Positions 5,686 to 37,820 of a stretch of DNA of 42,706 nt are shown one piece after another. Position 1 is the first letter of the stretch. Every line of letters begins with the position of its first letter. A program made the position numbers and the translations under genes. The stretch lies in the sequence record KY653126.1. The stretch is one strand, 5' to 3'. Under the pieces are notes generated by a model, which was not told the DNA's origin, did not search any database, and was given only the letters and a program-made list of their open reading frames with translations. Source of the stretch: Staphylococcus virus IME1354_01.

Positions 5686-5922
5686 GTGTTTCGTCAAATG
5701 GCGAAGGAAACGGTAACTTATATCATTCGGCACAGAGAAATACCAATTTATATAACGAACAAACCTAGTGATGCTAATCCAGATACAAATTATTCCACTA
5801 ACATAAGTAGAGCTAGAGAATTCGATGGAATGGAAGAAGCAAAAATTAATATGGACCATCACATAGCTATAAAAAAGACGGTCATAGAAACAACGGAATA
5901 CGAGGAGGTACAAGATGACTAG
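5686..5922 (+). CDS. Hypothetical 78-aa protein
   Basis: The likely start is the ATG at 5698 after AGAGGTG. The stop overlaps the next start as ATGACTAG. Confidence 0.5.
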   Translation: MFRQMAKETVTYIIRHREIPIYITNKPSDANPDTNYSTNISRAREFDGMEEAKINMDHHIAIKKTVIETTEYEEVQDD

Positions 5923-6547
5923 CTTTATCGAAAAATTTAACGAACTTAATTCACGTAACGTAAACGAACACGTTGAACAAAAAAATGGTCTCAACTATTT
6001 ATCTTGGGCATATGTTCAACAAGAATTAACTAAATTAGATGAAAATTTTCAACACAGATTCATAGAATTTCCTTATACAGACAGTGAACGTGACGACATT
6101 TTCGTGCCTTATTTAAAGACAGATGAAGGTTATATGGTTTGTGTGGAAATCACATTATTTGGCGTTACCAAAAGAGAGTGGTTACCAGTATTAAATTACA
6201 AAAACCAAGCAATTCCTAAAGGATCAGCTACAACTTTCGACATAAACAAAAGTATGAAAAGAGCATTCGTAAAATGTGCAGCTCAATTTGGTCTAGGAAA
6301 CTATTTATATTTGGGCGAGGATGCGCCAGATGCTAGTGATAACGACAGAACTGAATTAGAAGATAAGATTAATCAGTTTGTTACTATCTCACAAGAAAAA
6401 GGCCGTGACGCAACGTTGGACAAAACAATGCGATGGTTAGGCATATCGGACATTAATAAAGTATCACAAAAAGAAATAGCAAACGCACACGCAAAACTAG
6501 ATGCAGGACTAAAACAATTAGATAAGGATGATGAAAATGATAAATAG
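5915..6547 (+). CDS. Putative single-strand annealing protein (Rad52-like Sak / DUF1071-type)
   Basis: The N-terminal region NGLNYLSWAYVQQEL...GYMVCVEITLFG resembles phage Sak/DUF1071 proteins, and the gene sits immediately upstream of ssb. Confidence 0.5.
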   Translation: MTSFIEKFNELNSRNVNEHVEQKNGLNYLSWAYVQQELTKLDENFQHRFIEFPYTDSERDDIFVPYLKTDEGYMVCVEITLFGVTKREWLPVLNYKNQAIPKGSATTFDINKSMKRAFVKCAAQFGLGNYLYLGEDAPDASDNDRTELEDKINQFVTISQEKGRDATLDKTMRWLGISDINKVSQKEIANAHAKLDAGLKQLDKDDENDK

Positions 6548-6971
6548 ATTTATTGGTGTAGGACGATTAACTAAGGACCCAAATTTTGTAGAAGGACAAA
6601 CTGCAATAGCAAATTTCACAATAGCTTGCAACCGTCCGTTTAAGAACAAAAACGGTGAACATGATGCAGACTTCATCAATGTTGTAACATTCCGCAAACA
6701 AGCTGAAAACGTCAATAACTATGTACACAAAGGCGATATGGTTGGGATTGACGGACGTATACAATCACGCAGTTATGAAAATAAAGAAGGTCAACGTGTA
6801 TTTGTGACCGAAGTAGTGGCGGACAATGTTCAGTTTTTAGAACCTAAAGGACAATCAAACAAACAATACCAACAACAACGTGGTCAAGCTAAACCACAAC
6901 AAGCACCAGATAAAGATAATCCATTTGCTAACGGAAGTGCAGATATCAATACGGATGACCTTCCGTTCTGA
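6528..6971 (+). CDS. ssb: Single-stranded DNA-binding protein
   Basis: It has an OB-fold SSB sequence (MINRFIGVGRLTKDP...) and the acidic C-terminal tail DDLPF. The likely start is the ATG at 6537. Confidence 0.9.
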   Translation: MMKMINRFIGVGRLTKDPNFVEGQTAIANFTIACNRPFKNKNGEHDADFINVVTFRKQAENVNNYVHKGDMVGIDGRIQSRSYENKEGQRVFVTEVVADNVQFLEPKGQSNKQYQQQRGQAKPQQAPDKDNPFANGSADINTDDLPF

Positions 6972-6984
6972 TTGGACTGATTGA

Positions 6985-7665
6985 ATGCCAATAATTAAAA
7001 ACTACATCCAGCAAGATGATGGCACAATAACTGCTGTCATCGAGGATGTAACGTTAGAAAACAAAGACTTCTTACTGTTAGATAACGGACTAGAAGTAGA
7101 GTGCGACGTAATCGTGAGTGATCCTTACAAGATAACCGATAAACAACGTCGAAAAGTGTTCGCAATGATAAGAGATATATTCAATCACTATGGACAACCA
7201 ATGGACTATTTAAGGTATATGTTCCAAAAACAACTGGAGTTCTTACACGGTTATGAACCTATTTCATTAAGTAACTGCAGTAGACGACAAGCGAGTGAAT
7301 TAATCGAGTTGATACTTGATTTTATATTCGTAAATAATATACCCATTCACAAAGTCACTAGCGAGCTTATGAGCAACGATAAGTATTTTATATATAAATC
7401 TACCATAAACAGAATATGTGTTGTCTGTGGGGCTAAGAATGCCGATTTAGCACATTATCAAGCAGTAGGTAGAGGACGAAACAGAAACAAGATAGATCAT
7501 TATGGAAACAAAGTGTTAGCGCTGTGCAGAAACCATCATACAGAACAGCATCAAATAGGAATGGATAGCTTTAACAAGAAATATCATCTTACAGACAGTT
7601 GGCTTGACGTGGACGAGAAGCTGAATAAGATGTTGAAAGGAGAGCAATCAAATGGGAATCATTAG
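6985..7665 (+). CDS. HNH/Zn-finger nuclease-like protein (DUF968-type)
   Basis: The motif CVVCGAKNADLAHYQAVGRG...LALCRNHHTEQHQIG has the Cys/His spacing of an HNH-like fold. Confidence 0.5.
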   Translation: MPIIKNYIQQDDGTITAVIEDVTLENKDFLLLDNGLEVECDVIVSDPYKITDKQRRKVFAMIRDIFNHYGQPMDYLRYMFQKQLEFLHGYEPISLSNCSRRQASELIELILDFIFVNNIPIHKVTSELMSNDKYFIYKSTINRICVVCGAKNADLAHYQAVGRGRNRNKIDHYGNKVLALCRNHHTEQHQIGMDSFNKKYHLTDSWLDVDEKLNKMLKGEQSNGNH

Positions 7666-8356
7666 GATTGATAAAACTGCAGGTAATTACTTTATAGCTA
7701 GTAAATACTATGTAGAAGATGAAAATATTTCGTGGAAAGCCAAAGGGATTATGAGTTATCTATTTTCCAAACCTGATGATTGGCAGATTTACCAAACGCA
7801 ATTAGAGAAAGTATCTAAAGATGGCAAGGCTAGTGTTCGGTCAACTATTAATGAATTGATTGATAATGGTTATATGACTAGACAAAGCCGACGTAAAAGT
7901 AATGGCGATTTCGATGGATATGATTACACGCTACATGAACACCCAGTAAATGATGGGGTTCGAAAAATGGAAGACGCGAAAATGGAAGACGCGAAAATGG
8001 TAATCGCGAAATCGGACACTACTAATAATAACTCAACTAATAATGATTTAACTAATAATGATATAAACACTAGCGCAACTAAAGTTACGCAAGAACAATT
8101 CGACCAATGGTGGAATTTATATGATAAGAAACTAGATAAGAAGAAAGCATTTAGTTTATTTAAATCAGCATTAAAAAAATATGAGTTTGAAACCATTATG
8201 AACGGGACTAAAAATTATCTAAAAACAATTACTGATAAACAATATCAAAAATATCCTAAAACATTCTTATCACAAGAAAGTTTCTTGAATGATTACGGAA
8301 ATGAAGTAAAAACATCTGAAGAAAGTTATTTAGATAAATTGATGGAGGAGGGATAA
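7652..8356 (+). CDS. Replication initiator / replisome organizer-like protein, contains an internal iteron array
   Basis: The N-terminal domain is winged-helix-like. Fifteen-bp tandem repeats and an AT-rich stretch lie inside the coding sequence. The gene precedes the DnaB-like helicase. Confidence 0.55.
   Translation: MGIIRIDKTAGNYFIASKYYVEDENISWKAKGIMSYLFSKPDDWQIYQTQLEKVSKDGKASVRSTINELIDNGYMTRQSRRKSNGDFDGYDYTLHEHPVNDGVRKMEDAKMEDAKMVIAKSDTTNNNSTNNDLTNNDINTSATKVTQEQFDQWWNLYDKKLDKKKAFSLFKSALKKYEFETIMNGTKNYLKTITDKQYQKYPKTFLSQESFLNDYGNEVKTSEESYLDKLMEEG
7961..8015 (+). repeat. Iteron-like 15-bp tandem repeats (GCGAAAATGGAAGAC x about 3.5), putative phage origin
   Basis: The array reads cgaaaaatggaagac gcgaaaatggaagac gcgaaaatggtaatc gcgaaatcgg. 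It is followed at 8018-8070 by AT-rich ACTAATAATGA repeats. Confidence 0.55.
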
Positions 8357-8725: not shown

Positions 8726-9953
8726 ACGCCATGAGATAGAAAGCACCATTGTTGCTAGTCTTTTACAAAAACCAGATTTAATCGAAAAACTACGTGTTAA
8801 ACCTAAAATGTTTACGCATGATGGTATGAAGTCCTTTATGGAGTATGTGTTTGATGTAGGTAAAGTGGACCACAACGAAATATATTTAAAGACTACTAAA
8901 GACAAATCATTTTTAGATATGAATACCATTTCGAATTTGTATAATTCAATATTTATCGGCTACGGATTCTTTGAAAGATACCAACAAGATTTACTCAATC
9001 TATATCAAATAGATCAGACGCAAAATGTATTACAAGAATTCAATTCGGAACCAAACATAAACAATTTCGATGAGATGCTTAACAAACTACAAAAAGTCAG
9101 CTTGATTAGTGCAAATGAAGAAAGTGGAACGAAGAAAATTGTAGATCACTTTGTTGAAGAATTATACAGCGAAGAACCTAAGAAACAAATTAATACAGGT
9201 TACAAATTGATGGATTACAAAATAGGAGGTTTAGAGCCTACACAGTTGATTGTGATTGCTGCAAGGCCTTCAGTCGGAAAGACAGGATTTGCGCTTAATA
9301 TGATGCTTAATATTGCCTCACAAGGATATAAAACATCGTTCTTTAGCTTAGAAACTACAGGTGTATCTGTATTAAAAAGAATGTTATCAGCAGAAACTGG
9401 AATAGAACTAACACGTATTAAAGAAATTAAAGATTTAGAGCCAGATGAACTAACACGTTTAACAAGTGCTGCAGATAAAATACTCAAACTTGATATAGAT
9501 ATACACGATAAAAGCAATATCACTACACACGATGTACGTAAACAAGCGATGAAAAACAAAGATACCCAACAAGTTATATTCATCGACTACCTACAACTTA
9601 TGGAAACAGACAACAAGTTAGATCGTCGTAATGGTATTGAAAAAATATCAAGAGACTTAAAGATTATCGCTAACGAAACAGGCGCAATTATCGTCTTACT
9701 TTCACAGTTAAGTCGTGGAGTTGAAAGTAGAAACGACAAACGTCCTATGTTATCTGATATGAAAGAAGCAGGCGGAATAGAAGCAGACGCTAGTTTAGCA
9801 ATGTTGTTATATCGAGATGACTATTATAACCGTGATGACGTTGATAACTCAGGAAAATCAATTGTTGAATGTAATATCGCAAAGAATAAAGACGGGGAAA
9901 CGGGCATTATCGAATTTGAATACTACAAGAAAACGCAAAGGTTTTTCACATGA
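8718..9953 (+). CDS. DnaB-like replicative DNA helicase
   Basis: The C-terminal RecA-like domain has Walker A (ARPSVGKTGFALNMM) and DnaB-type motifs (IDYLQLM, LSQLSRGVESR). Confidence 0.9.
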   Translation: MNERHEIESTIVASLLQKPDLIEKLRVKPKMFTHDGMKSFMEYVFDVGKVDHNEIYLKTTKDKSFLDMNTISNLYNSIFIGYGFFERYQQDLLNLYQIDQTQNVLQEFNSEPNINNFDEMLNKLQKVSLISANEESGTKKIVDHFVEELYSEEPKKQINTGYKLMDYKIGGLEPTQLIVIAARPSVGKTGFALNMMLNIASQGYKTSFFSLETTGVSVLKRMLSAETGIELTRIKEIKDLEPDELTRLTSAADKILKLDIDIHDKSNITTHDVRKQAMKNKDTQQVIFIDYLQLMETDNKLDRRNGIEKISRDLKIIANETGAIIVLLSQLSRGVESRNDKRPMLSDMKEAGGIEADASLAMLLYRDDYYNRDDVDNSGKSIVECNIAKNKDGETGIIEFEYYKKTQRFFT

Positions 9954-10156
9954 CTATAAAACAATTCCAACAATTACTCGGACACCTATACAGAGACACA
10001 TACAAAGACGACACGCTCATTCAAGCTAATTTACTTGAGTTAGGTTGGGCAACTGAAAGATTGCGTGTGAATGGTCGCATAACGCCGTTTGATATGTATG
10101 AAGAAAAGAAGGACATTATTTTTGAAGAAATGGAGTGGTCGGATAGATGGAAATAA
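9950..10156 (+). CDS. Hypothetical 68-aa protein
   Basis: The ORF is coupled to the helicase stop through an ATGA overlap. Confidence 0.5.
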   Translation: MTIKQFQQLLGHLYRDTYKDDTLIQANLLELGWATERLRVNGRITPFDMYEEKKDIIFEEMEWSDRWK

Positions 10157-10371
10157 TTGAAAAGTATTTTCTTTATAGACCAGATGGAACAGAAGAAATA
10201 GAAGTAGAGAAACTTGATAAAGATACGAATATAGTTAGAACGCTCACAGGCGCTCATTTTAGCGAAGAAAGTAAAAAGATGACTGATAATGAGGTAAAAC
10301 GTTTTAAAGGCGTGTACGGGCTTCTATATGAGAATGAGCTAGGGTTACAAACAACAATATTTGATATATAG
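10147..10371 (+). CDS. Hypothetical 74-aa protein
   Basis: Its 3' end (…FDI stop) lies inside the 20-bp junction repeat. Confidence 0.5.
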   Translation: MEIIEKYFLYRPDGTEEIEVEKLDKDTNIVRTLTGAHFSEESKKMTDNEVKRFKGVYGLLYENELGLQTTIFDI

Positions 10372-10377
10372 GAGTGA
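10358..10377 (+). repeat. 20-bp junction direct repeat tatttgatatataggagtga (copy 1)
   Basis: An exact copy is at 11151-11170. It spans the FDI-stop of the upstream gene and the RBS of the downstream gene. Confidence 0.8.
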
Positions 10378-10381
10378 ACCA

Positions 10382-11164
10382 ATGGAACTGAATAAAATTT
10401 ACAACGAAGATTGTTTGATAGGTATGGAAAAAATTAAGGACAAGTCGGTAGATATGATTTTATGCGATTTACCATATGGAATGACAGATTGTAAGTGGGA
10501 CTCGATACTACCTTTAGATAAGCTATGGAAGCAGTACGAAAGAGTGATAAAGGATAATGGCGCTATAGTTCTAACAGCAGCACAACCGTTCACAACTCAC
10601 CTCATTGCTTCAAACATGAAACTTTTCAAATACACTTGGTATTGGATTAAAAATAGACCCAGTGGTTGGCAACATGCAAAGAATAAACCAATGACCAAAG
10701 TTGAAGAAGTATGTGTTTTTAGTAAAGCACCAATAGGGCATTTTTCACGACTAGGGGATAGAAGAATGGAGTATTACCCACAAGGTATTAAACCATCTGG
10801 CAAGAAAACCATAAGTGCTGCAAAACGCGGGAACATTATGGGGGCGAGACCTAATCAGACAGGAAAAGAATATGAGTCATTCACAGGTTTTCCGCATAAC
10901 ATACTAGAAATACAAAACGTCATCGGCAAACAAACAGTACATCCTACTCAAAAACCTGTTGAGCTATTCGAATACCTAATCAAAACATACACAAATGAGG
11001 GCGATACAGTATTAGATAATTGCATAGGGAGTGGAACAACCGCAATAGCTGCAATTAACACTAATAGAAATTATATAGGCTTTGAGTTAGACAAAGAATA
11101 TTTCGAATTAGCGAAAGACCGAATAAAAAAACACAATAAGCAGATGGAATTATTTGATATATAG
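10382..11164 (+). CDS. Orphan DNA methyltransferase, N6-adenine/N4-cytosine beta-class (N6_N4_Mtase-type)
   Basis: Motif IV DLPYG precedes HPTQKP and motif I (VLDNCIGSGTTAIAA). I take the ATG at 10382 after GGAGTGA as the start. The track begins at a TTG at 10361. Confidence 0.85.
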   Translation: MELNKIYNEDCLIGMEKIKDKSVDMILCDLPYGMTDCKWDSILPLDKLWKQYERVIKDNGAIVLTAAQPFTTHLIASNMKLFKYTWYWIKNRPSGWQHAKNKPMTKVEEVCVFSKAPIGHFSRLGDRRMEYYPQGIKPSGKKTISAAKRGNIMGARPNQTGKEYESFTGFPHNILEIQNVIGKQTVHPTQKPVELFEYLIKTYTNEGDTVLDNCIGSGTTAIAAINTNRNYIGFELDKEYFELAKDRIKKHNKQMELFDI

Positions 11165-11170
11165 GAGTGA
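11151..11170 (+). repeat. 20-bp junction direct repeat tatttgatatataggagtga (copy 2)
   Basis: It is an exact match to 10358-10377 and bounds the 3' end of the methyltransferase cassette. Confidence 0.8.
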
Positions 11171-11174
11171 CGGA

Positions 11175-11576
11175 ATGAGCAAATACAATGCAAAAAAAAT
11201 TGAGTACAAAGGAATTGTATTCGATAGCACGGTAGAGTGTGAATATTACCAATATTTAGAAAGTAGATTGCATGTAGATGGTTATGACCATATTCAAGTA
11301 CAACCTAGATTTGAGTTAATACCAAAAGTGGGCAAGCAAAGAAAAACGGAATATGTGGGAGATTTCGCACTGTATTTTGAAACTAAACTTATCGAAGTTA
11401 TAGATGTTAAAGGTATGCCTACAGAAACAGCTAAATTGAAAGCAAAGTTATTCAGATATAAATACCCAGATGTAAAGCTAACGTGGATATGTAAAGCTCC
11501 TAAATACACAGGTAAGCAATGGATAACTTACGAAGATTTAATTAAAGCTAGACGAGAACGCAAGAAAGCGAAGTGA
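11175..11576 (+). CDS. Conserved phage protein (DUF1064-like)
   Basis: The segment YKGIVFDSTVECEYYQYLE...VGDFALY matches a common staphylococcal-phage early protein. The ATG at 11175 follows GGAGTGA. Confidence 0.5.
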   Translation: MSKYNAKKIEYKGIVFDSTVECEYYQYLESRLHVDGYDHIQVQPRFELIPKVGKQRKTEYVGDFALYFETKLIEVIDVKGMPTETAKLKAKLFRYKYPDVKLTWICKAPKYTGKQWITYEDLIKARRERKKAK

Positions 11577-11581
11577 TCTAA

Positions 11582-13100: not shown

Positions 13101-13529
13101 ATGGACGTACATTATAGTAGCAAATCTAATGAGTGGGCTACACCTCAGTATTTATTTGATGAATTAGATAGAGAATTTAGTTTTACATTGGATCCATGCG
13201 CTACAGATGGAAACGCTAAATGTGATAAATACTACACAATTAAAGATGATGGTTTAAAACAAGATTGGTCAAATGATGTAGTGTTTATGAACCCTCCGTA
13301 TGGACGAGGTATTAAACATTGGATTAAGAAAGCATATGAAGAACATATGAAAGGTGCAACGGTTGTTTGTTTAATTCCTTCAAGAACAGACACAACTTAT
13401 TGGCATGACTATATTTTCGGAAAAGCAAGTGACATTCGTTTTCTAAGAGGGCGTTTGAAGTTTGGTGATAGTAAAAACAGTGCGCCGTTTCCTAGTGCAA
13501 TTGTTGTATATGAAAGTGAGATACGTTAA
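13101..13529 (+). CDS. Orphan DNA N6-adenine methyltransferase, phage Dam family
   Basis: WATPQYLFDELDREFSFTLDPCA, the NPPYG motif and FLRGRLKFGD...APFPSAIVVYES match the phage Dam family along the whole length. Confidence 0.8.
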   Translation: MDVHYSSKSNEWATPQYLFDELDREFSFTLDPCATDGNAKCDKYYTIKDDGLKQDWSNDVVFMNPPYGRGIKHWIKKAYEEHMKGATVVCLIPSRTDTTYWHDYIFGKASDIRFLRGRLKFGDSKNSAPFPSAIVVYESEIR

Positions 13530-13735: not shown

Positions 13736-14125
13736 ATGATTAAGTTTAGAGCGTGGGATAAAGAAGAAAAAGAATGGTTAAGTATTAGAACAATAGGATT
13801 TGATGATGATGGCTCACTTTGGTATTTACAAGCTTGGGATGATAATGAAAACGACATAGACCCACCATATTTAGAAGATGATTTAGGAGTGAAATGGGAG
13901 CTTCTCCAATCCACGGGGCTTAAAGATAAACATGGTGTGGAGATATACGATAAAGATATTGTAAGAGATTCCTATGGAGATATTCTCTTAATTGAGTGGT
14001 TAGACGGTAGCTTTGTACTAACTGACTTTTTCAGTGGTGGATATGACCATTGCAGTATAGATGATTCAGAAGCATATGAAATTGTTGGTAATCAATTTGA
14101 ACACCCACATTTACTAGAGGAGTGA
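13736..14125 (+). CDS. YopX-family protein
   Basis: The start MIKFRAWDKEEKEW and the segment GLKDKHGVEIYDKDIV are typical of YopX. Confidence 0.7.
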   Translation: MIKFRAWDKEEKEWLSIRTIGFDDDGSLWYLQAWDDNENDIDPPYLEDDLGVKWELLQSTGLKDKHGVEIYDKDIVRDSYGDILLIEWLDGSFVLTDFFSGGYDHCSIDDSEAYEIVGNQFEHPHLLEE

Positions 14126-14136
14126 TGGCGAGTGAG
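14117..14136 (+). repeat. 20-bp junction direct repeat gaggagtgatggcgagtgag (copy 1)
   Basis: An exact copy is at 14918-14937. In both copies the upstream gene ends with an EE codon pair and the stop, and the downstream gene starts at a GTG 15 nt into the repeat. Confidence 0.8.
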
Positions 14137-14583: not shown

Positions 14584-14926
14584 AGAACAATTATATACAT
14601 TCAAAGCAAACTGCTACAACGTTGTAGATGGGGACACAATAGACGTGATATTAGATTTCGGTTTCGATATTTCTGCAGATAGAAGATTACGTTTATTAGA
14701 TGTTGATACGCCTGAACGAGGACAAGAGAATTACACAGAGGCTACTGAGTTTGTGAAAGATAAAGTGTTTAATCACGATGTGCTGGTGCAGACACACAAA
14801 GATGACAATTTTGGTCGTTACTTAGCAAATGTTTATTACCTAGATGGCACAGAATATAGACTGCTTAATGATGAGATTAAAGAGAATGGACTATTAAAAC
14901 CAAATTCTAAATGGAATGAGGAGTGA
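14576..14926 (+). CDS. Staphylococcal-nuclease (SNase/thermonuclease)-like fold protein, short
   Basis: It contains VVDGDTIDV...RLRLLDVDTPER (compare the SNase DGDT...RLLLVDTPE). The ATG at 14576 follows AGGAGG. The track begins at a TTG at 14552. Confidence 0.55.
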   Translation: MIKEQLYTFKANCYNVVDGDTIDVILDFGFDISADRRLRLLDVDTPERGQENYTEATEFVKDKVFNHDVLVQTHKDDNFGRYLANVYYLDGTEYRLLNDEIKENGLLKPNSKWNEE

Positions 14927-14937
14927 TGGCGAGTGAG
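14918..14937 (+). repeat. 20-bp junction direct repeat gaggagtgatggcgagtgag (copy 2)
   Basis: It is an exact match to 14117-14136. Confidence 0.8.
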
Positions 14938-34587: not shown

Positions 34588-35188
34588 GATTAACCACAGA
34601 TATTTAAAAGATAATGATGGAGATACATTTTTCCCTATAACTCATATAGATGCTATACAAGGCATAAACCAAGAAAATACTGATAACGCAATAACTGATA
34701 TTAACGACAAGATTAACCAAATGAACACATTGCTATCAGAAGCTAGTGAAACTATTGCAAAACAAAGTAAAATAATAGAAGAACAGAAAAATAGTTTAGA
34801 TATACTCGATATATCACTAGGGGATATGGTCGGTGATACAGGTTGGGTGGATATTTCTGTACCTACTAATATGAAAAATAACGCAGTAGGCACTGGTTTT
34901 AAATCAGGTATTAGAGAGGTCAGAGTAGGCAACAGTTTAATGCCACATTATTTTGTAATCCGTTCCATTAGATTGAATGTATCAGGTATCACAGGTGCTA
35001 CTATGCAAATAGCTCAACTGCCTACAGGGTTTGTTACTGACAACCAATCATTCATGGCTAGACAACATGGTAGCAGGTCTCCAGTAACAGTTGAATGTTT
35101 AAAAGATGGTAAGGTCATGGCTTATATCCACCCTGACGACCAATCCAAAACTAATTGGCTCTACCAAGAGTTTACTTGGCTGGAATAA
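34580..35188 (+). CDS. Hypothetical tail/baseplate protein (202 aa)
   Basis: The assignment is positional. Confidence 0.45.
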   Translation: MAEINHRYLKDNDGDTFFPITHIDAIQGINQENTDNAITDINDKINQMNTLLSEASETIAKQSKIIEEQKNSLDILDISLGDMVGDTGWVDISVPTNMKNNAVGTGFKSGIREVRVGNSLMPHYFVIRSIRLNVSGITGATMQIAQLPTGFVTDNQSFMARQHGSRSPVTVECLKDGKVMAYIHPDDQSKTNWLYQEFTWLE

Positions 35189-35204
35189 AAAAGGAGTAAG
35201 ATAA

Positions 35205-37820
35205 ATGAAACTATATATAGACTTCCCTATTGAACTAGGTCAAAATTTTAGATATAAAACAGTAGAAAACTTTAAACGTATCTTAGATAACTATAAGTAT
35301 CTTAATGAAGATATGAAGTATCATAGAGAAGAAGAAAAACATGCTCACAACTCAAAACAGATTGATTACAAGCTCTCAAATGTTCATGATGAATTGACTT
35401 ATCAAGATGGACGTATTGAGGGCTTAGTTATTGGTCATAATGGTGACGGTATAGAAGAAATTAAAGATAGTAGAACAGCTTTAGATGGTACTAATCAACC
35501 TTTACTATCTAAGCGTTTAAAATATGATTTTGAAATCATTAAAAACAAAATGGAAGAAAATTTTAATTATCTTAACAAGAAGATTGAACGTATTGTAAAC
35601 GTCAATGATTACGGTGCAGATCCAACAGGTGAACAAGATTCTACTAAAGCTTTTAAGCAGGCTGTACGAGGTGGCAACGTTCACGTTCATATGACAGCAG
35701 GTACTTACAAAGTTACTGGAATTAAATTACCAAATAACACTGTATTATCAGGTGAAGGTAAAGATATTACTACAATTAAATTTGCAGATGAAACACCTGC
35801 TGAGAACATTGTAATTACTAATGAAGATATGTCAGGCAATGCTCACAATATCGGTATCAAAGATTTTACAGTCAACGGCAATAAGTGGAGACAGAACAAG
35901 AAGTTCAATGCGGCAGGAGGATCATTATCGTCTAACGTTAGGTTTGCTGGTGTTAAACATGGCTTTGCAAACAACATTAAATCAATTGATGCATTATTAC
36001 ATGGTTTTGATATTACTTATGCCAGCGATGATTATTTCTATCAAGGTGATGGAGTAAGAGTTAATGAAGCTTTAGAAAGTAAATACATTCATATTGATAA
36101 CTGTGAAGCTAGTGGTTTTGGTGATGAAGGTATTACTACCCACCACTCAAGATATTTGTTAATCACTAATAACTACTTGCATCATGCTACAGGTGGTGGC
36201 AATAATAACGGTATTGAAATAGATGATGGTTCACAGCATATAATGTTAGATAATAACAAAACTGAAATGAACTATGGAGGAGTAGAGGTTAAAGCCCATG
36301 CTCCAGCTTCAGCTCCTAATAATGTTTTAATCAGTAACCACATGTCTATTCATGATTCAAGAGCATATAACTTACGTCACATTGGACATCATAGAGCAGG
36401 AGACCCTAAATCTAAAACAGCACACAGTTTAATGTTAAATAATTGTACAGCAATCGAACCTTATGATAATAAAGTTTATCCAAACACAACACCAAGAGCA
36501 TTAGTTATTTCTGCTTATAGAAACGTACAAATTAATAACTTTAGCGCAGTTGGTGATGGTAAATTTACAGCAAATCAACCAGTTATCGCCGTACAATTTA
36601 TGGCAGAAAATGTTATGTTTAACGGCATTAACGTAACTGGTTTTAAAAATGCTTCCACTGATATTAAATTATTTGGTGGTAAAAATAGAGGTAAAAAATT
36701 TACTATTACTAATGCAAATATTTGGAACTCATCTCAAAATATTGGTATAGCTGGTGGCGCGGGATTATATGATATCCGGATCATTAATGCAAATATACAA
36801 GGACAAGGAACAGGTAATGGTATAGAGTTATATAACCATACCGCTGAAATAATTGGTTGTCACGCAGATAATTATAAAAATCCAGCAGTAATTGGTGGAA
36901 ACCCTTATTCTACAGTGCCTACTTTCTTAAAAGGTGGATTTAACGGAGGCACAACGGGTTCTTCTGCTTTATCTAACCGTTCTGCAATATTTGCTTCTAC
37001 TGGTGGTTCGTTTGCACACAGCGCTCGTTCATGGGTAGCTGGCTCTGGTGCTAATTCACATGCATGGGGTTCACGTAGTGCTGTACTTAACTCATTGGAA
37101 TCAGAAACTACTAATGGAAATCATACACAAACAATATTGAACTCAAGAGGTATGAAAGTAGATAAAAACTACACTGTAGCAATGGGCTATGGTACAGATG
37201 GGCCTTCAACAGAAAACACAGGTATAGAATTTAGACCTATTAGCGGCAATGCATATTTCAAAGGTAAAATAACTTCAGGAAATAGCACAGGTGACTATGC
37301 AGAGTATTTTGAATCTCAATCAGGACAAGAAATCCCTAACGGATATTTAGTTACACTCGATGGAAGATATGTCCGAAAAGCTAACTTAAACGATACACCT
37401 ATCGGAGTTATTTCAGGGACAGCAGGAGTTATTCTTGGTGACCAAATGTTCCACCATAAAGAAAAATTCTTAAAAGATGAATTTGGTGTTACACAAACTG
37501 AATGGACTACTAAAGAGTGGCAAGATGATGAAGGTAAGTGGTACTCAGAAGAAGTAGAACTTCCTATCCCTAACCCTGATTGGAAAGAATCAGATAATAA
37601 ATATATAGACCGTTCGCAACGTCCTGAATGGAACGTAGTAGGTCTTGTAGGGCAAGTATATACTCGTATTGATTCAACAGTATCAGAGAACGACTATATC
37701 AAACCCAATAAAGGTATCGGTACTAAAGATAATAATAACGGTTTCTATAGAGTGTTAGAAATAACTACGCCGTATGATAATGAAAAAGGCTATGGTGTAG
37801 CAGTAGTGTTAATCAAATAG
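35205..37820 (+). CDS. Tail fibre / baseplate protein with pectate-lyase-type right-handed beta-helix, possible cell-wall glycopolymer depolymerase
   Basis: The Pectate_lyase_3-like start VNVNDYGADPTGEQDSTKAFKQAV is followed by many Gly/Asn-rich beta-helix repeats. The C-terminal segment GDYAEYFESQ resembles Peptidase_G2 and tail-spike C-termini. Confidence 0.65.
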   Translation: MKLYIDFPIELGQNFRYKTVENFKRILDNYKYLNEDMKYHREEEKHAHNSKQIDYKLSNVHDELTYQDGRIEGLVIGHNGDGIEEIKDSRTALDGTNQPLLSKRLKYDFEIIKNKMEENFNYLNKKIERIVNVNDYGADPTGEQDSTKAFKQAVRGGNVHVHMTAGTYKVTGIKLPNNTVLSGEGKDITTIKFADETPAENIVITNEDMSGNAHNIGIKDFTVNGNKWRQNKKFNAAGGSLSSNVRFAGVKHGFANNIKSIDALLHGFDITYASDDYFYQGDGVRVNEALESKYIHIDNCEASGFGDEGITTHHSRYLLITNNYLHHATGGGNNNGIEIDDGSQHIMLDNNKTEMNYGGVEVKAHAPASAPNNVLISNHMSIHDSRAYNLRHIGHHRAGDPKSKTAHSLMLNNCTAIEPYDNKVYPNTTPRALVISAYRNVQINNFSAVGDGKFTANQPVIAVQFMAENVMFNGINVTGFKNASTDIKLFGGKNRGKKFTITNANIWNSSQNIGIAGGAGLYDIRIINANIQGQGTGNGIELYNHTAEIIGCHADNYKNPAVIGGNPYSTVPTFLKGGFNGGTTGSSALSNRSAIFASTGGSFAHSARSWVAGSGANSHAWGSRSAVLNSLESETTNGNHTQTILNSRGMKVDKNYTVAMGYGTDGPSTENTGIEFRPISGNAYFKGKITSGNSTGDYAEYFESQSGQEIPNGYLVTLDGRYVRKANLNDTPIGVISGTAGVILGDQMFHHKEKFLKDEFGVTQTEWTTKEWQDDEGKWYSEEVELPIPNPDWKESDNKYIDRSQRPEWNVVGLVGQVYTRIDSTVSENDYIKPNKGIGTKDNNNGFYRVLEITTPYDNEKGYGVAVVLIK

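Follow-up and report, generated by a model that had tools for sequence, protein, structure and literature searches.

Orphan DNA methyltransferases are known in temperate staphylococcal and lactococcal phages (PMC12435837, PMC4190342). PamA of mosaic phi11 is a Dam-type enzyme of 141 amino acids (aa) (PMC12435837), and for the methyltransferases of lactococcal 936-type phages protection from restriction was shown experimentally (PMC4190342). Here, we analyzed the DNA of Staphylococcus virus IME1354_01 (record KY653126.1; the whole stretch of 42,706 nucleotides (nt) is called the window), in which an open reading frame (ORF) for a beta-class methyltransferase lies between the DUF3269 and DUF1064 genes and is bracketed by two exact copies of a 20-bp gene-junction sequence. 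Like the orphan enzymes of staphylococcal and lactococcal phages, the window enzyme is accessory, has no cognate endonuclease, and is present or absent among relatives. Phages 80, 88, and 92 carry an annotated dam gene in exactly the same DUF3269-DUF1064 slot. However, the window enzyme is a PF01555 beta-class protein of 260 aa, whereas PamA and dam are of the 141-aa PF05869 Dam type, and the 3' joint of phage 80 lies at the Shine-Dalgarno (SD) sequence with an ATGA overlap and no 20-bp duplication, in contrast to the duplication in the window.

Short sequences at gene borders have been described in other phages. In the PeSL mobile regulatory cassettes of T4-type phages, the PeSL element (~100 bp) contains a promoter and a stem-loop terminator and occurs in ~50 dispersed copies per genome, and mini-circles were shown experimentally (Arbiol et al. 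2010, PMC2839356). As in the window, an accessory ORF lies between two short expression signals, and in a close relative the ORF is missing and a single copy of the signal is present; recombination between copies is the mechanism proposed for PeSL excision and insertion and is possible in the window also. Unlike PeSL, the window repeat is only 20 bp long, consists of a stop codon and an SD sequence without promoter or terminator, is present in two copies, and has joints that vary in relatives. Conserved boundary or junction sequences at gene borders have also been described under the modular theory for lambdoid and PVL-type staphylococcal phages (PMC3528268). These share with the window the position of mosaic joints at gene borders and a short conserved border that is a candidate site of homologous exchange, but the window border is duplicated in tandem around one ORF and is partly recruited as its coding 3' end. 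A classic moron (Juhala/Hendrix) carries a promoter and a terminator of its own and often stands out in base composition; the window gene resembles it as an extra gene between genes that are adjacent in related phages. We found no earlier description of a DUF3269 junction duplication in the searchable literature, and searches with the junction sequence gave unrelated papers. In this study, we show that the slot is empty or differently occupied in other phages, and we consider it likely that the repeat is the scar of a short-homology or micro-homology (illegitimate) insertion, which was kept for the ribosome-binding site (RBS) of the downstream gene and later spread via longer flanks.

To define the repeat, we examined both copies and their surroundings (Table 1). 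The 20-mer TATTTGATATATAGGAGTGA occurs exactly twice on the + strand, at 10358-10377 and 11151-11170, with a start-to-start distance of 793 bp, and there is no other site in the window at up to 3 mismatches. Two matches were found in 0/100 dinucleotide-preserving shuffles. The flanking bases differ at both ends (A/T at 10357/11150 and A/C at 10378/11171), so the exact repeat is 20 bp long; beyond it the copies agree again only from AATG, which gives an extended repeat of 24/27. The order in the junction is DUF3269 tail, TAG stop, GGAGTGA SD sequence, 4-nt spacer, and start codon. In copy 1, the ...F D I TAG of the DUF3269 ORF is followed by GGAGTGA 4 nt 5' of the methyltransferase ATG at 10382, and in copy 2 the ...F D I TAG of the methyltransferase ORF is followed by GGAGTGA 4 nt 5' of the DUF1064 ATG at 11175. 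The gap between stop and next start is therefore 10 nt on either side of the methyltransferase ORF. We observed the identical arrangement in three independent public assemblies (L006, L007, and L012), and it is therefore not an assembly error.

The sequence-only reading, made before any database search, had described this anatomy correctly: both copies and their spacing, the F D I stop and SD sequence in each, and the MIYRS N-terminus translated from a TTG inside each copy. These N-termini in the mechanical ORF list are real but derive from the TTG within the repeat; the likely starts of the methyltransferase and DUF1064 are the ATGs. The same reading had named a generic RBS context as what would speak against it. 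We excluded this, because a search of the 42.7 kb for the 9-nt core TAGGAGTGA gave only 4 occurrences (the repeat copies and two further sites).

Table 1. Features of the DUF3269-DUF1064 slot and of the recombination genes in the window
Feature	Coordinates	Strand	Evidence or remark
DUF3269 gene, 74 aa, ending ...TIFDI-TAG; source of the repeat via its 3' end	10147..10371	+	PF11673 E=1.6e-30; PHROG 433; 94-96% nt identity to empty-site relatives
Junction copy 1 (J1): last codons of DUF3269, TAG, and GGAGTGA SD now serving the methyltransferase	10358..10377	+	single copy in empty-site phages
Putative inserted foreign segment: 4-nt spacer and methyltransferase ORF from ATG 10382 to codons ...M-E, apparently without native 3' end and stop	10378..11150	+	limits of L008 homology; missing from O1-69
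Orphan beta-class N6-adenine/N4-cytosine DNA methyltransferase ORF, 260 aa; F-D-I codons and stop within copy 2	10382..11164	+	PF01555, motifs, 1g60
Junction copy 2 (J2): duplicated DUF3269 tail; stop codon for the methyltransferase, SD for DUF1064	11151..11170	+	exact repeat; edge of megablast match
DUF1064 gene, 133 aa; usual downstream partner of DUF3269	11175..11576	+	PF06356 E=1.6e-41; PHROG 190 'Holliday junction resolvase'
Sak-type single-strand annealing protein	5915..6547	+	PF06378 E=2.7e-30
SSB, after Sak	6528-6971		PF00436 E=2.3e-31

To find relatives with and without the cassette, we used window positions 9950-11580 as a megablast query against phage records. Phage O1-69 matched the query in two pieces spanning 838 bp, which is 793 bp shorter than the query. 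When 10378-11170 (793 bp) was removed from the window, the alignment to O1-69 was gap-free over 838/838 positions at 89% identity, and the O1-69 junction was present as a single copy, TATTTGATTTGTAGGAGTGA. This deletion alignment is the valid comparison, since global alignment of empty-site loci was uninformative owing to the placement of end gaps. In addition, at least 48 S. aureus phage records annotated with DUF3269 directly followed by DUF1064 gave a match that starts exactly at 11151, the first base of copy 2; their junction, TATTTGATATTTAGAGGTGG, has diverged. Searches for near-identical phages without the cassette by exact-protein look-ups gave none, with no record for the DUF3269 protein and only the L012 contig for the DUF1064 protein, and the matches listed for a pattern with 16 specified bases (TTTGATNTNTAGGAGTGA) over 596 Gb of genome contigs were chance matches in unrelated taxa.

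A pattern scan of IMG/VR revealed ~40 staphylococcal phage loci in which DUF3269 ends in the junction. DUF1064 follows directly in 19 of these loci, including L024, which has the exact 20-mer once. In the others the junction is followed by a methyltransferase allele starting MELNKIYNEDC (6 loci), by RusA (8 loci: L040, L055-L058, L060, L068, and L071), by VRR-NUC (5 loci: L035, L045, L052, L061, and L076), or by another gene (1 locus). The junction is conserved at 18-20/20 positions across many phages ahead of these differing downstream genes, and wherever RusA, VRR-NUC, or a GTG-started DUF1064 follows, this conservation extends through the 'caac GTG' start. Because the occupants vary after one conserved junction, the DUF3269-resolvase slot is a hot spot that joins alternative nuclease or resolvase genes and optional methyltransferases to DUF3269. 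The earlier proposal of a discrete, losable methyltransferase cassette between identical junctions was thus borne out by empty sites (O1-69, L024, and ~17 others) and by alternative alleles. Relatives with a single repeat in which the methyltransferase is absent or replaced, which that reading had suggested looking for, were both found, and some other alleles also carry a second junction copy.

We also noticed that DUF1064, RusA, and VRR-NUC, three unrelated nuclease/resolvase-type genes, interchange directly after the junction TATTTGATNTNTAGGAGTGAcaacGTG. In this interchange, non-orthologous genes replace one another, and the start codon is where they are joined. A C-terminal ...EKMKNGK tail is also shared by some VRR-NUC and DUF1064 proteins.

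We then compared the alleles of the slot. The other in-slot methyltransferases showed 30-56% protein identity to the window enzyme. At the nucleotide level, identity was 86-94% in DUF3269 and 75-80% in the first 50-100 nt of the methyltransferase; the core was at background or unalignable, and identity recovered over the final ~150 nt of the gene and in DUF1064. We observed that the second junction copy differs among these alleles. It is identical to copy 1 at 20/20 positions in the window and L012 and at 19/20 positions in L039/L025, where the methyltransferase also ends in ...LFDI*. In L062/L054 the copy matches at 17/20 positions, lies 8 nt past a native TAA stop, and includes a longer DUF3269 tail (gcgaTATTTGA). 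In L042 it matches at ~14/20 positions, with TAG changed to CAG, a protein tail ...ELFTLQE*, and RusA instead of DUF1064 downstream. No clear copy was found in L043, where the 3' end of the methyltransferase overlaps the DUF1064 start. In the same slot of phages 80/88, a 141-aa Dam/PamA-type protein has its tail fused at the SD sequence (...VY|RGAQ*, ATGA overlap), and ~12 nt of SD sequence and spacer are shared. There are therefore at least three distinct right-hand joints across lineages. The RBS for the downstream gene is kept in all of them.

The sequence-only reading had considered the methyltransferase recently acquired. This is doubtful, as the right joint (...KQxxLF and junction) is common to the diverged alleles L039 and L042, and the joint is therefore probably old. 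In two loci the in-slot methyltransferase is split into two ORFs by apparent frameshifts (L039 reverse strand 819-1519 and L054 reverse strand 10165-10939); the copy in L062, near-identical to that in L054, is intact. Either dispensability of the gene or sequencing errors could account for the split.

To locate the edges of the insert, we compared the window with homologues outside the slot. The nearest one, P0002 (86% aa identity; locus L008), has a glutaredoxin gene on one side and a gene of unknown function on the other, and another, P0003, follows a large-terminase gene. The junction sequence was absent on both sides of the closest out-of-slot methyltransferase homologues, and their contexts are unrelated. 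Nucleotide homology between the window and L008 (~85%) sets in at the ATG and breaks off after ATGGA(A/G) at 11144-11149, one base short of copy 2 at 11151. The out-of-slot homologues end in ...EMEK*, ...SETL*, ...HENK*, or ...QQLTLV*, whereas the window enzyme ends in ...LFDI*. Since the homology to L008 stops at the edge of copy 2 and the tails of the homologues differ, the enzyme appears to read into the duplicated DUF3269 tail. This suggests that the inserted segment (~10378-11150) is a bare ORF that lost its native stop and that the enzyme ends in a duplicated piece of DUF3269 (...LFDI*).

The methyltransferase matched PF01555 (N6_N4_Mtase) with 105.5 bits (cutoff 26.7) over profile positions 1-220/221 and fell into PHROG 67 'DNA methyltransferase' (E=2.2e-78). 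Its motifs are in beta-class order, with DLPY at residues 29-32 (motif IV type) and GSGTT at residues 216-220 (motif I type), and among solved structures M.MboIIA (1g60; alignment over residues 1-244) is its closest homologue, with DpnA, CcrM, and M.RsrI next; the beta-class label of the sequence-only reading was right. Lactococcal phage enzymes are among its closest phage homologues (56% aa identity). No cognate restriction endonuclease gene adjoins the methyltransferase, whose neighbors are DUF3269, DUF1064, and small phage ORFs, and we therefore classed it as an orphan. Its role would most likely be methylation of phage DNA for evasion of host restriction. The window opens with a tyrosine integrase gene and also encodes Sak, SSB, an HNH-type nuclease, DnaB helicase, and, besides DUF3269, the methyltransferase, and DUF1064, other small phage genes. 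Based on the integrase and the phage replication genes, the window looks like a temperate staphylococcal phage or prophage.

A consensus scan of the + strand detected no promoter-like or terminator-like sites flanking the methyltransferase, with none of the former within the junction upstream of 10382 and none of the latter near 11164, and the regional site counts were below the shuffle expectation. The GC content of the insert is 36.7%, compared with 32.9% and 33.6% in the flanking genes and 34.2% in the window. Since the gene has no promoter or terminator of its own, is separated from its neighbors by 10-nt gaps, and has a GC content near that of its surroundings, it is embedded in the cluster and is not an autonomous moron. 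It is probably read as part of the surrounding replication/recombination gene cluster and translated by coupling. The term moron, which the sequence-only reading had used, holds as far as an extra gene between genes adjacent in relatives is meant; we rejected the label of a classic moron, as neither own expression signals nor a deviant composition were found.

Two further methyltransferase genes were observed. The window contains a second orphan methyltransferase at 13101-13529, a 142-aa Dam-type enzyme (PF05869), where L012 has an HTH gene; it is of the same kind as the annotated dam gene in the DUF3269-DUF1064 slot of phages 80/88 and as PamA of mosaic phi11. O1-69 (L013) has a paralogous PF01555-type methyltransferase (56% aa identity) at 35141-35839, ~7.5 kb downstream of its junction. 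The flanks of the O1-69 locus have no nucleotide match in the window, and thus the window and O1-69 hold related methyltransferases at different positions.

Taken together, we favor the insertion scar as the probable origin of the repeat, because the right joint varies, out-of-slot homologues lack the junction, and there is no transposase, recombinase, or inverted repeat. A promoter-less orphan beta-class methyltransferase ORF would have been spliced into the DUF3269-resolvase translational junction of a temperate, integrase-encoding Staphylococcus phage. Copy 1 would supply the RBS of the methyltransferase, and copy 2 would replace its native 3' end, providing its last codons and stop and restoring the RBS of DUF1064. 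One possible route is an unequal crossover in which one partner phage had a methyltransferase behind DUF3269 and the other had DUF3269-DUF1064. Of the resulting joints, selection would retain only those that leave an SD sequence ahead of the downstream gene. The cassette and its alleles may then have spread by relaxed homologous recombination in longer flanks, namely DUF3269, the resolvase gene, and both ends of the methyltransferase gene (first ~85 nt, last ~150 nt), with the phage's own Sak annealing protein as a plausible catalyst. Rad52-like phage recombinases were reported to recombine short, diverged sequences efficiently during phage growth (PMC3945230). The perfect 20-mers would in principle also permit precise gene loss, returning the locus to an empty site like that of O1-69.

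Several points weigh against this explanation. The ...KQxxLF tail is common to the in-slot alleles of the window, L039, L042, and L043, and the L-F codons may be native to this methyltransferase clade, merely giving microhomology (TTATTT) with the DUF3269 tail. We found no donor more than 86% identical to the methyltransferase and no near-identical phage pair that differs by the cassette alone, and we could not retrace in which order, or by which mechanism, the two joints arose. Furthermore, the perfect 20/20 match in the window, as against the decayed copies elsewhere, could reflect recent exchange or gene conversion at the 20-mer, as predicted if the junction were a linker.

Such a linker is the first alternative. 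Here, the 20-bp junction itself recombines: a circle made of the gene and one junction enters a resident junction by a single crossover and leaves in reverse, and alleles swap between the copies. The junction-gene-junction order is the exact product of a single circle crossover, the L039/L025 allele is likewise bracketed by the junction, with a 19/20 match, and in L042 a cassette with a decayed junction precedes a different gene, RusA. One junction, conserved through the GTG start, precedes three unrelated nuclease genes, and the copies in the window are perfectly identical, even though a comparison of orthologous junctions across phages shows differences at 1-2 positions. Sak is present, and mini-circles of PeSL cassettes were demonstrated experimentally in T4-type phages (PMC2839356). 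We also surveyed exact direct-repeat pairs of at least 16 nt, 150-3000 nt apart, in the window and 42 staphylococcal phage loci (483 kb) and found 26 pairs compared with 0-3 in shuffles, many of them consisting of stop codon, SD sequence, and start codon; a second junction forms tandem arrays in L043, L050, L231, and L242. However, the position of the right joint varies, with a native stop and a longer DUF3269 remnant in L062, a joint at the SD sequence in phage 80, and no clear second copy in L043. The nearest out-of-slot homologues lack the junction on either side, and the genome has just two junction copies. Moreover, 20 bp is near the lower limit for recombination by annealing proteins, whereas the flanks offer hundreds of bp at 75-95% homology. 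We therefore regard recombination at the junction itself as an unlikely origin of the structure, and the 20-bp repeat probably does not serve as a universal linker. The sequence-only reading had taken the 20-mer as the expected substrate of exchange. The data fit this only in part, and such a role is not needed, given the shifted joints in L062 and phage 80, the unflanked out-of-slot homologues, and flank homology far longer than 20 bp.

A more general form of this alternative is that staphylococcal temperate siphoviruses use 17-27 nt stop/Shine-Dalgarno/start junctions as recombinase-independent cassette linkers, with single genes leaving as mini-circles and re-entering via Sak at any resident junction. 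We consider this generalization distinctly improbable. If true, such linkers would form a shuffling system of the integron or PeSL kind in which translational signals take the place of transcriptional ones. They would explain the junction-gene-junction order, the tandem arrays of the core AGGAGTGATGGCGAGTG in L043, L050, L231, and L242, and why unrelated genes share identical junctions and GTG starts.

The second junction family was examined separately. A second exact 20-bp direct repeat, GAGGAGTGATGGCGAGTGAG, is located on gene junctions of the window at 14117-14136 and 14918-14937 (spacing 801 bp). Copy 1 contains the end of the YopX gene (...LLEE*) and the GTG start of a 102-aa ORF, and copy 2 contains the end of an SNase-like gene (...WNEE*) and the GTG start of a 91-aa ORF; the pair brackets three ORFs (102 aa, 47 aa, and SNase). 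In L012, a 98% identical relative, just copy 2 is present and the gene upstream of SNase is a different one, O1-69 is without the entire block, and megablast against phage records gave no empty-site relative for this region. The core AGGAGTGATGGCGAGTG was found in 60 IMG/VR staphylococcal phage stretches in 1-3 tandem copies, each directly 5' of a small ORF with a GTG start. Three copies each are present in L043 (8583-9304), L050 (6448-7169), L231, L242, and L236, and two copies each in L018, L212, L217, L226, and L254. Among the ORFs downstream of the core, 44/67 belong to one hypervariable mosaic coiled-coil family, including the 102-aa and 91-aa ORFs of the window. BLASTP clustering of the 67 ORFs gave 12 clusters at 70% coverage, at least 11 of them besides the mosaic family. 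We withdrew the idea that this junction precedes more than 50 unrelated genes, since BLASTP places 44/67 ORFs in one family. Another exact junction-type repeat of 23 nt, TAAGTAATGGAGGTAATGTAATG (stop, SD, and start), occurs with a distance of 239 nt in L014 (5091/5330) and L081 (10008/10247).

Next to the insertion scar, we also weighed the reverse order of events, in which the occupied slot is the ancestral one and O1-69, L024, and other empty sites arose from it by later deletion between the direct repeats. Direct repeats favor precise deletion, the resulting site would be indistinguishable from one never occupied, and the disrupted methyltransferase genes in L039 and L054 point to a dispensable gene. 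But the adjacency of DUF3269 and DUF1064 is the majority arrangement across very divergent phages, including the at least 48 S. aureus records with TATTTGATATTTAGAGGTGG, and a methyltransferase stop within a copy of the DUF3269 tail is a derived feature. This order of events is very unlikely, and it bears on individual lineages and not on the origin of the structure.

The repeat could also be the target-site duplication or att core of a transposable or site-specific mobile element, for which direct duplication of the target around an insert is the classical signature. However, no transposase, recombinase, or homing endonuclease lies in or beside the insert, which encodes the methyltransferase alone, and we found no terminal inverted repeats around it. 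The insert is a bare ORF, reaching from 4 nt 5' of the ATG to just short of the stop, the phage integrase is 9 kb off, and the window has no further junction-like site. To our knowledge, a 20-bp target duplication is atypical of known transposons. We consider a mobile element hardly credible. Finally, coincidence or convergence, in which two genes end alike and share a strong RBS, is effectively refuted: GGAGTGA is a good SD sequence and the 9-mer TAGGAGTGA has two further sites in the window, but no shuffle produced two 20-mers, translation constrains only ~7-8 nt, DUF1064 of phage 80 is served without the TATTTGATATATAG part, and the out-of-slot homologues do not end in FDI.

Elsewhere in the same module, L005 (vB_SarS_BM31) has an HNH homing endonuclease gene (306-785) between two pieces annotated as DnaB helicase, upstream of a DUF3269 homologue; this HNH insertion in DnaB is another kind of insertion. 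In the window, a perfect tandem duplication of 15 nt (AAAATGGAAGACGCG x2) was found at 7964-7993, inside a 234-aa ORF with an HTH domain (7652-8356).

In general, the junction duplication is a fairly ordinary case of accessory gene gain and loss in phages, and the concept is already known. It is, however, an unusually clean case resolved to the base, in which a putative anti-restriction gene was gained with the operon undisturbed, both genes would still be translated, and the stop is borrowed from a neighbor. The hot spot at the DUF3269-resolvase junction takes several methyltransferases, including the PamA/Dam type linked to S. aureus virulence, and could help to predict the host range of phages and their evasion of restriction. 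Should the short junctions prove to be active sites of recombination, the PeSL mini-circle idea would extend from T4-type phages to temperate phages of Gram-positive bacteria.

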